Below, in pieces: positions 1 to 17,823 of a stretch of DNA of 64,000 nucleotides. The DNA is from Escherichia coli O157:H7 (lineage in GTDB: Bacteria; Pseudomonadota; Gammaproteobacteria; Enterobacterales; Enterobacteriaceae). Position 1 is the stretch's first letter. Every line of letters begins with the position of its first letter. The stretch is from NCBI RefSeq assembly GCF_013167455.1, contig NZ_CP038328.1; one strand, written 5' to 3'. Below the pieces are notes generated by a model, which searched no databases, had not been told where the DNA came from, and saw only the letters and a program-made list of their open reading frames with translations. Made by a program: the position numbers and the translations under genes.

Positions 1-5935
<5,935 letters not shown>

Positions 5936-9432: not shown

Positions 9433-9633
9433 TGAACCCCTCCAGACAGAAAAGACAAAACTTCCTTAAAGCTAACCCGTTGCTACTGAAACGACAAGCG
9501 ACAGCGGGCTGAATGGTGGTTAAAACGTCATACAGGAATCCTCTGAAAGCGGAGCCGTTTCGTTCATGGGCTTGAAAAAGCGCCCAATGTATTCCAGGCT
9601 TATCTAACACGCTGATAAACAATAGGACGGAAT

Positions 9634-9972
9634 ATGAACAAGAATATGGCAGGAATTCTGAGTGCAGCGGCGGTATTAACCATGCTGGCGGGTTGTACGG
9701 CTTATGATCGTACCAAAGACCAGTTTGTACAGCCTGTGGTGAAAGACGTCAAAAAAGGCATGAGCCGGGCGCAGGTTGCACAAATTGCGGGTAAACCTTC
9801 GTCTGAAGTGAGCATGATCCATGCTCGTGGTACTTGCCAGACCTACATCCTGGGTCAACGTGATGGTAAAGCAGAAACCTACTTTGTCGCGTTAGATGAT
9901 ACCGGACATGTCATCAACTCCGGTTATCAGACCTGTGCTGAATACGACACTGATCCACAGGCTGCGAAGTAA
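9634..9972 (+). CDS. osmE: osmotically inducible lipoprotein OsmE
   Basis: 112-aa ORF with lipoprotein signal (LAGC lipobox). Confidence 0.9.
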
Positions 9973-10004
9973 TCACTTCGTCTGAAAGCTTGAGTAACAA
10001 CGGA

Positions 10005-10031
10005 AACCGGCCATTGCGCCGGTTTTTTTTT
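10005..10031 (+). terminator. rho-independent terminator of osmE
   Basis: Stem aaccggc/gccggtt followed by a T9 run, 30 bp after the osmE stop. Confidence 0.6.
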
Positions 10032-10073
10032 GGCCTGAGTTCTTAATTATCTTCGCGAATTATTTGCCCGAAA

Positions 10074-10089
10074 TGTGAAGAGGGTCATA
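10074..10089 (+). promoter_or_regulatory. putative CRP (CAP) site in the chbB promoter region
   Basis: TGTGA-N6-TCATA, a 9/10 match to TGTGA-N6-TCACA, about 190 bp upstream of the chbB start. Confidence 0.4.
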
Positions 10090-10271
10090 ACCGCAGGTCA
10101 AGGAGAGACAATTTATAAGGTCAAAGAAATACTATTGCTCAGGTCTATACCGTATACTCCTTTCAGCCACAAAAAAAGTCATGTTGGTTTCGCAAGTTAC
10201 CCAGAGCATGGAAGCAGGTTAAGGCTTGCGGAGTGTCTGGCTGACAGATAATCGTCGATGAGGGCAGTTTT

Positions 10272-10592
10272 ATGGAAAAGAAACACATTTATCTGTTTTG
10301 TTCTGCGGGCATGTCTACCTCTTTACTGGTATCAAAAATGCGCGCACAGGCAGAAAAATATGAAGTTCCGGTCATTATTGAAGCATTTCCGGAAACACTG
10401 GCTGGTGAAAAAGGTCAGAATGCCGATGTCGTGTTATTAGGGCCGCAGATTGCTTATATGTTGCCCGAAATCCAGCGTTTGTTACCCAACAAACCGGTTG
10501 AAGTAATTGACTCGCTGCTTTATGGCAAAGTCGATGGTTTAGGCGTGCTTAAGGCTGCGGTTGCAGCGATTAAAAAAGCCGCAGCAAATTAA
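10272..10592 (+). CDS. chbB: PTS chitobiose-specific EIIB component
   Basis: 106-aa ORF; Cys-containing N-terminus ([14 protein letters not shown]) typical of lactose-family EIIB. Confidence 0.92.
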
Positions 10593-10676
10593 TTTATTTT
10601 AAATTTTCCCGTCAAAGAGTTATTTCATAAATCAATACCGCAATATTTAAATTGCGGTTTTTAAGGGTATTTTTCT

Positions 10677-12035
10677 ATGAGTAATGTTATTGCATCGCTT
10701 GAAAAGGTACTCCTCCCTTTTGCAGTTAAAATAGGAAAGCAGCCACACGTTAATGCAATCAAAAATGGCTTTATTCGCTTAATGCCGTTAACCCTTGCGG
10801 GGGCCATGTTTGTATTAATTAACAACGTTTTTCTAAGCTTTGGGGAGGGGTCGTTTTTTTATTCCTTAGGTATTCGCCTCGACGCCTCAACCATTGAAAC
10901 ACTTAATGGTCTGAAAGGTATTGGCGGCAACGTATATAACGGAACATTAGGGATAATGTCTTTAATGGCACCGTTCTTTATTGGCATGGCGCTGGCAGAA
11001 GAGCGTAAAGTCGATGCGCTGGCGGCTGGGTTGTTATCCGTTGCAGCATTTATGACCGTCACCCCATATAGTGTCGGTGAGGCCTATGCGGTTGGCGCAA
11101 ACTGGTTAGGTGGGGCGAATATCATCTCCGGGATTATTATTGGCCTGGTGGTGGCAGAAATGTTTACCTTTATTGTCCGCCGCAATTGGGTCATTAAACT
11201 GCCCGACAGCGTACCTGCTTCAGTATCGCGTTCCTTCTCGGCATTAATTCCCGGCTTTATTATTCTTTCCGTGATGGGGATTATTGCCTGGGCGTTGAAT
11301 ACCTGGGGCACCAACTTCCATCAGATCATTATGGATACCATCTCAACCCCACTGGCATCGTTGGGTAGCGTGGTGGGCTGGGCCTATGTGATCTTTGTTC
11401 CACTGCTCTGGTTCTTCGGTATTCATGGCGCGCTGGCGCTGACCGCACTGGACAACGGCATTATGACGCCGTGGGCGCTGGAAAATATCGCGACCTATCA
11501 GCAATATGGTTCCGTCGAAGCGGCGCTGGCAGCCGGTAAGACCTTCCATATCTGGGCCAAGCCGATGCTGGACTCCTTTATTTTCCTTGGAGGCAGTGGT
11601 GCGACTTTAGGCCTGATCCTGGCTATCTTTATTGCCTCTCGCCGTGCTGATTATCGTCAGGTGGCAAAACTGGCGCTGCCGTCCGGCATCTTCCAGATTA
11701 ACGAACCGATTCTGTTTGGTCTGCCAATTATCATGAACCCGGTGATGTTTATCCCGTTTGTACTGGTACAACCGATTCTGGCGGCAATCACCCTGGCAGC
11801 GTACTACATGGGCATTATTCCTCCGGTGACCAATATTGCACCGTGGACCATGCCAACCGGTCTGGGAGCCTTCTTTAACACCAACGGTAGCGTCGTCGCA
11901 TTGCTGGTTGCACTCTTCAACCTTGGTATCGCAACGTTAATTTATCTGCCCTTTGTTGTGGTGGCTAACAAAGCACAAAATGCGATTGATAAAGAAGAGA
12001 GCGAAGAAGATATCGCTAACGCCCTGAAATTTTAA
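10677..12035 (+). CDS. chbC: PTS chitobiose-specific EIIC permease
   Basis: 452-aa polytopic membrane ORF. Confidence 0.92.
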
Positions 12036-12085
12036 TCGATGCCGGTACGGGTAATCGTGCCGGTAAGAAAAGAGAGGAACGATGT

Positions 12086-12436
12086 ATGATGGATCTCGAT
12101 AATATTCCCGATACGCAAACGGAAGCTGAAGAGCTGGAAGAAGTGGTGATGGGGCTTATCATCAACTCCGGACAAGCGCGCAGCCTGGCGTATGCCGCAC
12201 TGAAACAGGCGAAGCAGGGCGATTTTGCCGCAGCAAAAGCCATGATGGATCAGTCACGGATGGCATTGAATGAAGCGCATCTGGTACAGACGAAACTGAT
12301 TGAAGGCGATGCGGGCGAAGGTAAGATGAAAGTGAGTCTGGTGCTGGTCCACGCTCAGGATCATTTAATGACGTCCATGCTTGCGCGTGAACTGATTACT
12401 GAATTAATTGAGCTTCATGAAAAACTGAAGGCATAA
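12086..12436 (+). CDS. chbA: PTS chitobiose-specific EIIA component
   Basis: 116-aa ORF, lactose-family EIIA. Confidence 0.92.
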
Positions 12437-12443
12437 GGAGTCG

Positions 12444-13286
12444 ATGATGCAGCCAGTGATTAACGCGCCGGAAATTGCCACTGCCCGAGAACAGCAGTTG
12501 TTTAATGGCAAAAACTTCCATGTGTTTATCTATAACAAAACTGAGAGTATCAGCGGACTGCATCAGCACGACTATTATGAATTTACTCTGGTATTAACCG
12601 GGCGTTATTTCCAGGAGATTAACGGTAAGCGCGTGTTACTGGAACGGGGCGATTTTGTTTTTATTCCGTTAGGTTCGCACCATCAAAGTTTTTATGAGTT
12701 TGGTGCCACGCGCATATTGAACGTTGGGATCAGTAAACGCTTTTTTGAGCAGCATTACCTGCCATTGTTGCCTTATTGCTTTGTAGCTTCGCAGGTATAC
12801 CGGACCAATAACGCTTTTCTCACCTATGTGGAAACAGTGATTTCTTCATTGAATTTCCGCGAAACAGGGCTGGAAGAGTTTGTTGAGATGGTTACTTTTT
12901 ATGTCATTAACCGTTTACGTCATTACCGCGAAGAACAGGTGATTGATGATGTACCGCAGTGGCTGAAAAGTACGGTAGAAAAGATGCATGATAAAGAGCA
13001 GTTTAGTGAATCGGCGCTGGAGAATATGGTGACGTTGTCAGCCAAATCACAGGAATATTTGACGCGGGCGACTCAACGATATTATGGCAAAACGCCAATG
13101 CAGATTATTAATGAAATCCGTATTAATTTTGCCAAAAAACAACTGGAAATGACCAACTATTCAGTGACGGATATTGCGTTTGAGGCCGGTTATAGTAGCC
13201 CGAGTTTGTTTATTAAAACGTTTAAGAAATTAACGTCCTTTACGCCTAAGAGCTATCGTAAGAAATTGACTGAATTTAATCAGTAA
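12444..13286 (+). CDS. chbR: AraC-family dual regulator of the chb operon
   Basis: 280-aa ORF with C-terminal AraC-type HTH. Confidence 0.9.
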
Positions 13287-13391
13287 GTCGTTATACCTGA
13301 CAATTCACATATCTGTCCTGTTGCTGGATTATTTATGTCCGGGGGGGGCAGATATGCCAGATATCAGTATTCTGTACTGAAGGGAGAAATT

Positions 13392-14744
13392 ATGAGCCAG
13401 AAATTAAAAGTCGTCACTATTGGTGGCGGGAGCAGCTATACCCCGGAGTTACTGGAAGGATTTATTAAGCGTTATCACGAATTGCCGGTCAGCGAATTAT
13501 GGCTGGTGGATGTCGAAGGTGGCAAAGCTAAACTGGATATTATTTTCGATCTCTGCCAACGGATGATTGATAACGCTGGCGTCCCGATGAAGCTTTATAA
13601 AACGCTGGATCGCCGCGAAGCATTGAAAGATGCTGATTTCGTTACTACCCAACTGCGCGTTGGCCAATTACCGGCGCGTGAACTGGATGAACGTATTCCA
13701 TTAAGTCATGGTTATCTTGGTCAGGAAACCAACGGCGCGGGCGGTCTGTTTAAAGGTCTGCGTACCATTCCGGTGATTTTTGACATCGTAAAAGATGTCG
13801 AAGAACTTTGTCCGAATGCATGGGTGATTAACTTCACTAACCCGGCGGGAATGGTCACTGAAGCCGTTTATCGTCATACCGGATTTAAACGCTTTATCGG
13901 CGTGTGTAATATTCCGATCGGCATGAAGATGTTTATTCGCGATGTTCTGATGCTGAAAGACAGCGATGATTTATCTATCGATCTGTTCGGCCTCAACCAT
14001 ATGGTGTTCATTAAGGATGTGCTGGTAAATGGCAAGTCGCGCTTTGCCGAATTGCTTGATGGTGTGGCATCCGGGCAGTTAAAAGCATCTGGCGTTAAAA
14101 ATATTTTCGATCTGCCATTTAGCGAAGGCTTAATTCGTTCTCTGAATCTGTTGCCGTGTTCTTATTTGCTTTATTACTTCAAGCAAAAAGAGATGCTGGC
14201 TATTGAAATGGGCGAATACTACAAAGGCGGCGCACGAGCGCAGGTAGTACAGAAAGTCGAGAAACAACTTTTTGAGCTGTATAAAAACCCGGAGTTGAAA
14301 GTTAAGCCGAAAGAACTGGAACAGCGCGGTGGGGCTTATTACTCTGATGCAGCGTGCGAAATGATCAACGCTATCTACAACGATAAGCAAGCAGAACATT
14401 ACGTTAATATCCCGCATCATGGGCATATTGATAATATTCCGGCAGACTGGGCGGTAGAAATGACCTGTACGCTGGGGCGCGATGGCGCGACGCCACATCC
14501 GCGCATTACGCATTTCGATGATAAAGTGATGGGGCTGATTCACACCATTAAAGGCTTCGAGATTGCTGCCAGCAACGCCGCACTTAGCGGAGAATTTAAC
14601 GATGTGTTACTGGCGCTAAACCTTAGTCCGTTGGTGCATTCCGATCGCGATGCTGAGCTGCTGGCACGCGAGATGATTCTGGCGCACGAGAAATGGCTGC
14701 CAAATTTTGCCGACTGCATCGCAGAGCTTAAAAAAGCACATTAA
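13392..14744 (+). CDS. chbF: phospho-chitobiase (family-4 6-phospho-beta-glucosidase, NAD/Mn-dependent)
   Basis: ORF-track frame 13335-14744; start placed at ATG 13392 (MSQKLKVVTIGGGSSYTPEL, Rossmann motif) giving 450 aa. Confidence 0.9.
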   Translation: MSQKLKVVTIGGGSSYTPELLEGFIKRYHELPVSELWLVDVEGGKAKLDIIFDLCQRMIDNAGVPMKLYKTLDRREALKDADFVTTQLRVGQLPARELDERIPLSHGYLGQETNGAGGLFKGLRTIPVIFDIVKDVEELCPNAWVINFTNPAGMVTEAVYRHTGFKRFIGVCNIPIGMKMFIRDVLMLKDSDDLSIDLFGLNHMVFIKDVLVNGKSRFAELLDGVASGQLKASGVKNIFDLPFSEGLIRSLNLLPCSYLLYYFKQKEMLAIEMGEYYKGGARAQVVQKVEKQLFELYKNPELKVKPKELEQRGGAYYSDAACEMINAIYNDKQAEHYVNIPHHGHIDNIPADWAVEMTCTLGRDGATPHPRITHFDDKVMGLIHTIKGFEIAASNAALSGEFNDVLLALNLSPLVHSDRDAELLAREMILAHEKWLPNFADCIAELKKAH

Positions 14745-15515
<771 letters not shown>

Positions 15516-15525
15516 GTAAGGTGGT

Positions 15526-15553
15526 AAGGTCACTCCCCAGGGGACGTGACCTT
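15526..15553. terminator. bidirectional hairpin between convergent chbG and katE
   Basis: Inverted repeat aaggtcactcccc / ggggacgtgacctt between the two stop codons. Confidence 0.45.
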
Positions 15554-15561
15554 ATCCATAT

Positions 15562-17823
15562 TTACGCCGGAATTTTGTCAATCTTAGGAATGCGTGACCA
15601 CACGCGGTGTGCTGCCATCAGCGTTAACAGTTCATCCATAAAACTACCGTCGGCGCTGTCAGCTTCCACAATCCCTTCTTCACCCTGGTCAGCGACCTTG
15701 ATTGTTGCTTTAAACTTGCGCGCGTCTCCCGCCAGCGCAATCGGTTTAAGGTGTTTGTAGGCTTCCATCAGGTAGTAGTTGGCATCGCCGTTGTCAGCGA
15801 TATCCGCGATATTGCCGCAAGGGACAATGACCGCATCGACCGTCAGCGAAGGCGCACCGGCAAAGGTAGCGGCTATAGGCAACACCGTACCGTCATCCGC
15901 AGTCACTTCACCCATTCGGGAGTAGAGCAGTTTGGCATGAACGCCTTTGGCCTTCAGCGCCTTGAGAATGGCCAGAAGGTCTGCCGATCTCACTTCATCA
16001 TTAAGTAAAATCGCTACCACGCGACCTTTCACATCACCGTCAGGAATGGCGTACAAACTTAAGGATGGATCCTTTTTCAGACCGTTGACGTCCGGAGGTG
16101 GGGTGATATTCAGCTGGTCGTCAGTCAGTTCGATACCGAGATTTTTCGCCACCGCCTGGGCCAGAGTGAGATCAATATGCGCCAGCTGGTCAACAACGCG
16201 CTCACGAATATACGGACGAACGACTTTGCTTAACTCAAAACTGAAACCATCGACAATATGGCGCTGCTCGAATGGCGTCTGACTTAGCCAGAACAGACGC
16301 GGATGGGAATAATATTCGCCAAAAGATGGACTGCGCTCGCGAACTTTATTTCCTTCCACGCGTTCCTGATATGATTCAAAACCGCCGCGTTTCGGTCCCG
16401 GCGGTGTTTCGCGCGGCCAGTTATCGTTGATCGAGTTCGGTTCGTAATTCGCCGGGTTAGTGTCGATCCCCATACGATGCATGCCGTCACGCTGGAAATT
16501 ATGGTAAGGGCAGGTTGGGCGGTTAATCGGAATCTCATGGAAATTCGGCCCACCAAGACGACTGATTTGTGTATCGGTATAGGAGAACAAACGTCCCTGC
16601 AACAGGGGATCGTTGGTGAAGTCCAGACCAGGAACAATATGACCTGGATGGAATGCTGCTTGTTCGTTTTCGGCAAAGAAGTTATCCGGATTGCGATTGA
16701 GCACCATTTTGCCGACACGCTGAACGGGCACCAGTTCTTCCGGGATAAGTTTAGTTGGATCGAGAAGATCGAAGTCGAACTTGAATTCATCTTCTTCAGG
16801 AATCAACTGGAAGCCCAGTTCGTATTCCGGAAAATCGCCTGCTTCAATGGCTTCCCACAACTCGCGGCGGTGGAAGTCCGGGTCACGTCCGGTTAGTTTT
16901 TGTGCTTCATCCCAAACGAGTGAGGCTTTACCTGCCAGTGGTTTCCAGTGGAAACGTACAAACGTTGCCTTCCCTTCGGCATTAATCAGGCGGAAGGTAT
17001 GAATACCAAAGCCTTCCATGGTGCGGTAACTGCGGGGGATGCCGCGATCCGACATCGCCCACATCACGTTGTGCAGAGTTTCAGGTTGCAGAGAAACATA
17101 ATCCCAGAAAGTATCGTGGGCGCTTTGCCCTTGTGGAATTGCCCAGTGTGGTTCTGGTTTTACCGCATGAACAAAATCGGGGAATTTATGCGCATCCTGG
17201 ATAAAGAAGATTGGCGTGTTATTGCCAACGAGGTCAAAAATACCCTCTTCAGTATAGAACTTGGTGGCAAAGCCACGGATATCACGCACGGTATCGGCAG
17301 AGCCAGCACCACCCTGAACGGTAGAGAACCTAACAAATACTGGGGTGATTTTGTTCGGATCTGAGAGGAAATCCGCTTTGGTGATATCGCTTAAGCTTTT
17401 ATATGGCTGGAAATAACCGTGAGCGGCTGATCCACGTGCATGAACAATACGTTCCGGGATGCGCTCATGGTCAAAGTGGGTGATTTTCTCGCGCAGAATA
17501 AAATCTTCCAGCAGCGTTGGACCACGGCTACCGGCACGCAGTGAGTTTTGATCGTCGGCGATGCGCACGCCCTGATTAGTGGTCAGCGCATAATTTTCAC
17601 TGCCTTTGCGTACGTCTTCCAGAGAATTAAGTTTTTCGTTACGCGTATCAGGGGCTTTCAGGCTCCCTGAGGCGGTAGGTTGTGCACCTGGCGGTGTTGG
17701 TTCAGCCGCTGGACGATGAGAGCCGTCCTCAGGTGCCAGTGAGTCCATCCCCGGTTTCGCTTCGCTGGAATCGTGTAGTGGTGACTGGTGCTGATGTGGG
17801 TTCTTTTCGTTTTGTTGCGACAT
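15562..17823 (-). CDS. katE: catalase HPII (large-subunit monofunctional catalase)
   Basis: 753-aa ORF; catalase core plus C-terminal flavodoxin-like extension. Confidence 0.93.

Follow-up and report, generated by a model that had tools for sequence, protein, structure and literature searches.

Between chbR and chbF, in the chb operon of Escherichia coli O157:H7, lies an uninterrupted run of eight G residues that is probably a near-neutral, E. coli-specific mononucleotide microsatellite, derived from the expansion of a conserved GGG in an intercistronic RNA stem and driven by slippage. The run is longer than the minimum of 6 for such a repeat and lies in non-coding DNA; its length is polymorphic among strains while its flanks are conserved (5,405 genomes and 55 metagenome contigs); and it has changed recurrently and stepwise at a level well above point mutation (at least 7 changes, compared with 0.10 per flanking site, and length series of G10-G9-G8-G7 and G7-G9-G12-G13). 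We infer slippage as the mechanism from established homopolymer indel mutagenesis, and we infer near-neutrality as well.

The chbR-chbF spacer

The stretch of DNA analyzed here (64,000 nt, called the window) carries a chb operon of the O157:H7 type, with chbB, chbC and chbA upstream of chbR and, 3' of chbF, chbG followed by katE on the opposite strand. The chbR-chbF spacer is 100% identical to that of an annotated O157:H7 genome, where all 105 nt lie between chbR and celF. The sequence at 13338-13349 reads tcc-GGGGGGGG-c, and the initial annotation's placement of a G8 run, preceded by CC, within this spacer is exact. Its estimate that the run lies about 45 nt upstream of the chbF start is close to the measured distance, which is 43 nt from the last G of the tract to the ATG. 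The Shine-Dalgarno sequence of chbF, AAGGGAG, is nearly invariant in 26 enterobacterial spacers. The features discussed below are collected in Table 1.

Table 1. Features at the chbR-chbF junction, in window coordinates.
Feature	Position	Strand	Basis and remarks
chbR, AraC-type regulator of the chb operon, upstream neighbor, 280 aa	12444-13286	+	ORF and RefSeq
chbR-chbF intercistronic spacer, 105 nt	13287-13391	+	RefSeq annotation of identical O157:H7 sequence
Predicted two-level RNA stem-loop	13308-13356	+	MFE fold and covariation
Outer stem (predicted)	13308-13319 with 13345-13356	+	Compensatory changes in Escherichia, Citrobacter and Salmonella
Inner stem (predicted), CUGGAU/GUCCGG	13324-13329 with 13337-13342	+	Predicted fold
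Upstream ATG in the loop of the inner stem	13335-13337	+	Opens an ORF, 13335-14744, through the tract
G8 homopolymer tract	13341-13348	+	Sequence; CC precedes at 13339-13340; length polymorphic (G5-G13) in E. coli
Second small hairpin (predicted), UCAGUAU-UCU-GUACUGA	13364-13380	+	Predicted fold; just upstream of the chbF Shine-Dalgarno sequence
chbF translation initiation region	Shine-Dalgarno AAGGGAG 13380-13386; ATG 13392-13394	+	
chbF (celF), 6-phospho-beta-glucosidase, downstream neighbor, 450 aa	13392-14744	+	ORF and RefSeq

In the O157:H7 strain PV15-279 (L001, 767-1980), the IS3-family element IS1203 is inserted in chbA, leaving two pseudogene fragments; chbA is intact in the window (12086-12436). 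The chb operon is disrupted in at least this one O157:H7 strain.

The chbR-chbF tract is the only G8 or C8 run in the whole 64-kb window. Dinucleotide-preserving shuffles give an expectation of 1.10 such runs per 64 kb, with at least one present in 63 of 100 shuffles, and thus the presence of a G8 is no more than composition would produce by chance. Across 1,346 genomes, G and C runs of 6 or more in Escherichia have a mean length of 6.22 and a standard deviation of about 0.57 [PMC8928963, Table 1], placing a length of 8 in the upper tail but not among the exceptional. The same survey counts 11.6 A/T runs in Escherichia for every G/C run and already documents general homopolymer length variation in the genus [PMC8928963]. 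The sole other G/C run of 7 or more in the window is a G7 on the minus strand (C7 on the plus strand) at 62213-62219.

Tract length across E. coli

Used as a query, the 105-nt spacer has matches in 5,405 of 5,426 complete E. coli genomes, with match lengths of 105, 104, 103 and 102 nt. The number of Gs (8, 7, 6 or 5) is the sole systematic difference among the aligned representatives, and the flanks are otherwise near-identical. We counted alleles with queries of 93-97 nt, each consisting of 45 + 43 nt of consensus flank around a fixed number of Gs; at lengths below 100 nt a threshold of 99% or more is an exact match, and approximately 830 genomes with a flank SNP or other variant fall outside the exact counts given in Table 2. 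Among the complete E. coli genomes the G11 query found no G11 allele, and a G3 query found no tract below G5 (G4 or less) in the 5,405 genomes. In an evenly spaced sample of the match ranking, the overall shares are approximately 61% G7, 19% G6, 14% G5 and 7% G8, and G5-G7 tracts are found in about 93% of genomes. The initial annotation had called the tract slippage-prone and had named a length invariant across strains, with no effect on chbF expression, as the outcome that would refute it; the observed range in the 5,405 genomes, G5 to G13, with variation also inside O157:H7, bears out the expectation of slippage.

Table 2. Tract-length alleles in complete E. coli genomes.
Allele	Genomes	Query	Remarks
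G5	711	Exact match	
G6	851	Exact match	
G7	2,731	Exact match	K-12 included
G8	278	Exact match	Mostly O157:H7
G9	6	Exact match	
G10	2	G11 query	ST648; O55:H7 DEC5B
G12	1	G11 query	2013C-4830
G13	1	G11 query	2012C-4227

Metagenome contigs, searched with the flanks and a variable gap between them, provided an independent and mostly short-read sample of 55 matches: 28 with G7, 17 with G6, 6 with G5, 2 with G8 and 2 with GGAGGGG. The two contigs with the interrupted GGAGGGG allele in place of a pure G run are L026, whose flanks rank with the most divergent ones sampled, and L047, which is too short for placement in the tree; the interruption should stabilize the tract. Two of the spacer matches in the genome set are on plasmid-labeled records, and the locus is absent from 21 of the 5,426 genomes.

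Tempo and lineage distribution

To place the length changes on a phylogeny, we used a neighbor-joining tree built from 2.6 kb of flanking sequence and a Fitch count of changes; the IS1203-bearing L001 was excluded because its insertion had distorted a first version of the tree. With recombination ignored, the tract needs at least 7 changes among 30 unselected metagenome haplotypes, while the 2,539 flanking sites need an average of 0.10 and a maximum of 5. Including the long alleles raises the minimum for the tract to 16 changes. No other character in the surrounding 2.6 kb is as homoplastic, and haplotypes that are only 0-1 differences apart over 2.6 kb carry different tract lengths.

The O55:H7/O157 haplotype group contains DEC5B (O55:H7) with G10; 493/89 (a sorbitol-fermenting O157), LSU61 and F3113 with G9, the length of early O157; and the window and typical (Sakai-like) O157:H7 with G8, which also share a T at 11896. 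A second haplotype includes L030 with G7, 90-3040 with G9, and the G12 and G13 genomes. A 1,370-nt query carrying the O157 haplotype and G7 has 100% matches in at least 40 O157:H7 genomes; among these are TW14359, EC4115, SS17 and SS52, which belong to lineage I/II and are distinct from Sakai and EDL933 [PMC5552260]. Within a single serotype, the tract length shifts about as fast as sublineages diverge, and the long alleles appear to be the least stable. Position 11896, in chbC, is the sole difference in 2.6 kb between DEC5B, 493/89 (O157:H-), LSU61 and F3113, which have a C, and the window and STEC799, which have a T; the four C strains carry G9 or G10, the window G8 and STEC799 G9.

Length is mostly clade-structured, with G7 in K-12 and the O111 strains, presumably representing phylogroups A/B1, and G5 or G6 in Nissle 1917, NC101 and the ST95 strains, presumably representing B2. 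There is no scrambling inside lineages, as hundreds of genomes share G8 or G7. The fixation of G8 in 278 genomes and of the O157 G7 in at least 40 argues against very high slippage rates for these two lengths. Such a pattern is what replication slippage would produce; its rate rises steeply with homopolymer length, and mismatch repair holds it down.

A conserved, predicted stem-loop in the spacer

We compared the chbF loci of 80 other species. Only E. coli proper has the G run; in Escherichia sp. MOD1-EC7003, the nearest Escherichia outside that species, TTGGAAC stands in its place. The homologous position in Citrobacter, Salmonella and other Escherichia is occupied by GGG(C/U)..., which pairs with GCUUGCCC. 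The E. coli sequence ...AUCUGUCC...GGGGGGGCAGAU... aligns to ...GCUUGCCC...GGG(C/U)(A/U)GAGC... in Citrobacter and Salmonella; the counterpart in E. whittamii is GGCAGGC. Single-sequence MFE folds of 19 species show a two-level hairpin, with these two blocks paired as its outer stem. The predicted fold of the G8 allele has the first two Gs of the tract closing the inner stem and the last four paired with UCCU of the 5' arm, with 13343-13344 as a bulge; more generally, at most four Gs of the tract pair with UCCU in the predicted E. coli fold, and extra Gs bulge at the junction.

The outer stem, named by hand on a 21-sequence alignment derived from the same sequences, has 91% of its cells paired, compared with 26-44% in controls with the 3' partners slid by 1-3 columns. 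Double compensatory changes are seen at pairs 34-91 (G-C/A-U), 35-90 (C-G/U-A) and 36-89 (U-A/C-G), representing perhaps one or two events. In the small hairpin, pair 107-114 is A-U in 8 sequences and G-C in 13 (alignment A3). RNAalifold recovered no hairpin from the raw MAFFT alignment of 26 spacers (A2), which we attribute to a one-base bulge and a repositioned Enterobacter 3' arm that shift the register. Within E. coli, 2 of 62 non-tract spacer sites segregate (with the bases of the search pattern excluded), compared with approximately 15% of the third codon positions in chbR and chbF, and this low polymorphism suggests purifying selection on the non-tract spacer. A hairpin that recurs across species with compensatory changes points to a conserved, unannotated intercistronic RNA structure between chbR and chbF. 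Its GGG pairs with the conserved CC(C/U) of the 5' arm, and the E. coli run is an expansion of this GGG.

Other genera vary the arrangement. In the Enterobacter group the 5' arm (GCUUGC) is retained, but with a nearer 3' arm as its partner. Enterobacter and Lelliottia (L080, L083, L084 and L086-L095) have an extra GC-rich hairpin after the chbR stop codon, for example GGCGGAUUAUCCGCC, which is absent from Escherichia and Citrobacter and could be a partial terminator or a stabilizer. Approximately 30 nt upstream of chbF, a UUUCCU motif is present in Escherichia sp. E1V33 (L065), E. whittamii (L066), E. albertii (L067) and "E. coli" SCPM-O-B-8794 (L068), at the place where E. coli and Citrobacter have the CAGU...ACUG hairpin instead. 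The motif pairs with the Shine-Dalgarno sequence of chbF (AGGGAG) in the MFE folds of L065-L067, and the pairing is weaker and partial in L068; occlusion of the ribosome-binding site in L065-L067 is a possible reading of these folds.

On the near-neutral reading, the conserved GGG at the start of the 3' arm in the chbR-chbF stem-loop would have expanded in E. coli, with replication slippage then altering the tract one unit at a time. Tract length would change far faster than the neighboring bases, yet slowly enough for lineages to be fixed at one length; alleles of G9 or more are rarer and would be more unstable, and G5 would be the floor. Because the tract lies outside the annotated ORFs and the ribosome-binding region, changes in its length would be tolerated, and chbF expression is probably affected little or not at all, beyond small shifts in hairpin stability.

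Predicted effects of tract length and alternative explanations

The G3-G11 alleles of the spacer were folded with ViennaRNA in a context of 44 nt from chbR and 36 nt from chbF. All share the same architecture, with total energies of -43.6 kcal/mol for G5, -47.8 for G8 and -52.3 for G10, and the hairpin fold is the same for G3-G13. The predicted probability of being unpaired is identical from G3 to G11 for the Shine-Dalgarno sequence (0.59), the AUG (0.47) and the region from -20 to +15 (0.58), and thus there is no thermodynamic reason to expect altered chbF translation initiation. The hairpin alone has a predicted energy of -21.4 kcal/mol for G5, -23.4 for G6 (which is perfectly stacked), -25.6 for G8 and -30.1 for G10; length is predicted to alter stem stability only modestly. 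The initial annotation had suggested that a length change could alter either the initiation of chbF translation or the structure of the mRNA. The first suggestion is unsupported by the folds, and the second is partly sustained, in that the predicted stability of the hairpin shifts with length but its fold does not. The annotation had also stated that no reading frame would be shifted, and this holds for the annotated frames, although the ORF opened by the ATG at 13335 had been overlooked.

Other roles considered for the tract or its hairpin were rejected. A Rho-independent terminator or attenuator does not fit, as the hairpin is followed by CCAGAUAUCAG rather than by a U tract and a scan of 12900-13700 found 0 terminator-like sites. 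A G-quadruplex was dismissed because there is only one G run, and transcriptional slippage because it would be without coding consequence. A search against Rfam 15 gave no match to the spacer at an E value of 1 or below and, over 9500-16000, a single match to an irrelevant lncRNA at E = 0.83.

In the main alternative, tract length would set the stability or geometry of the stem-loop and, through it, the processing, decay or ribosome loading of chbF-chbG relative to chbBCAR, so that lineages would differ in their ratio of enzyme to transporter. The tract does belong to a conserved and covarying stem, the non-tract spacer is constrained, the predicted hairpin energy spans the range from G5 to G10 given above, and the lengths cluster within one unit of the structurally optimal G6, with nothing at G4 or below. 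We nonetheless consider this explanation unlikely, as the predicted fold and the accessibility of the initiation region stay constant with length, the fold z-score of the spacer is just -1.85, the operon is dispensable in some strains (the IS1203 insertion in PV15-279 being the example), and length-dependent slippage rates explain the length distribution equally well. Our searches of the literature on chbF/chbR, celF/celD, E. coli mononucleotide repeats and O157 homopolymers found no paper on the chbR-chbF tract or tying the spacer to regulation. It may be that length affects mRNA processing or stability by way of the constrained spacer and the conserved structure, and the excess of G5-G7 around G6, with its perfectly stacked junction, could reflect stabilizing selection rather than a mutational equilibrium. 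We are more doubtful that the sequence from G10 through G9 and G8 to G7 along the path from O55:H7 to O157:H7 represents adaptive retuning of chitobiose or cellobiose catabolism via the stem-loop instead of neutral drift.

A promoter internal to the operon seems to us very improbable. In this explanation TTCACA-17 nt-GATTAT (13304-13332, plus strand) would direct transcription from a +1 at about 13339-13341, so that tract length could influence initiation, by reiterative transcription for instance, and chbF-chbG would be expressed independently of the chbB promoter. Nine of the 12 hexamer positions match, and the promoter-like match is conserved in Escherichia sp. MOD1-EC7003, but conservation of the hexamers does not extend to other species and 800 nt hold three such sites where 2.0 are expected by chance; no report of a transcription start here was found in the literature.

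The ATG at 13335 is the sole route by which tract length could act as a switch. The ORF that it opens shares the reading frame of chbF only at G5, G8 and G11, and thus in the allele of the window; with G7, G10 or G13 the ATG begins a uORF of 14 to 16 codons, and with G6, G9 or G12 an overlapping ORF of 43 to 45 codons. Slippage could then toggle between an extended ChbF and an upstream ORF, turning chbF on and off within a clone as a phase-variable contingency locus does, and the variation of the long alleles among near-identical haplotypes would be in keeping with such toggling. The ATG, however, lies in the hairpin loop, lacks a convincing Shine-Dalgarno sequence and is a CTG in MOD1-EC7003, the closest non-coli Escherichia, while the canonical chbF start has a strong and near-invariant one; RefSeq never annotates the N-terminal extension; and the 278 genomes fixed at G8, with at least 40 O157 genomes fixed at G7, are a misfit with high-frequency switching. 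The ATG is probably not used, and we give the switch hardly any credence.

That the length differences are sequencing or assembly artefacts is the least credible explanation of all and is already refuted for G5-G9: long-read assemblies do miscount G runs, and the outliers (G12, G13 and the G9 of STEC799) rest on one assembly each and may be wrong, but across all technologies each common length is represented by hundreds to thousands of genomes, the exact G8 with identical flanks is found in 278 complete genomes and 2 metagenome contigs, the short-read metagenome assemblies give the same proportions, the lengths follow phylogeny, and a MAGE oligonucleotide published for the chbF ribosome-binding site, which reads ...CTGCCCCCCCGGACAT, confirms the G7 of K-12 [PMC4488073]. 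The length polymorphism is real, although single rare alleles are possibly miscounted.

Comparison with known systems

The near-neutral reading places the tract closest to the non-coding SSR and MNR loci of E. coli, of which Gur-Arie (2000) and Diamant (2004) reportedly made surveys, with MNR-based strain typing. Like these, the chbR-chbF tract is an uninterrupted run of 6 or more that differs stepwise between strains within identical flanks, and it is phylogenetically informative yet homoplastic. Unlike the typical locus, which lies in a promoter region or between operons, it is a G run inside an operon and within a conserved (predicted) RNA stem.

Phase-variable poly-G and poly-C tracts are found in genes and promoters of Neisseria, Haemophilus, Campylobacter and Bordetella. 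The chbR-chbF tract shares with these contingency loci a slippage-prone run of G and, for G9-G13, variation among near-identical haplotypes. It differs in lying outside any annotated ORF or demonstrable promoter spacer, with no on/off consequence predicted, and in having lengths fixed in lineages of hundreds of genomes. Inspection of the ORFs, the promoter spacer and the ribosome-binding region did not find the repeat placed where it would switch expression.

In the malEFG and pap operons, among others, intercistronic stem-loops give the parts of a polycistronic message different stability or processing. The chbR-chbF structure resembles them as a stable predicted hairpin in an operon-internal spacer, between functionally different genes and with compensatory changes across genera. 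In contrast to them, it is not a REP element, and it has a variable homopolymer in one arm, which is unusual.

Implications

If the near-neutral reading is true, the tract is of practical value only. It would serve as a cheap length marker, as it separates E. coli phylogroups and also O157:H7 sublineages in which 2.6 kb of flanking sequence has 0-1 SNPs, and it marks a site of likely long-read assembly error. The length also needs to be taken into account in the design of oligonucleotides or fusions for the chbF ribosome-binding site, with G7 in K-12, G8 in Sakai-type O157 and G5 or G6 in Nissle 1917 and NC101. If tract length does tune the operon, this would be a rare case of an E. coli homopolymer adjusting intra-operon expression through RNA structure. 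The unannotated chbR-chbF stem-loop may itself merit attention in studies of chb operon regulation.
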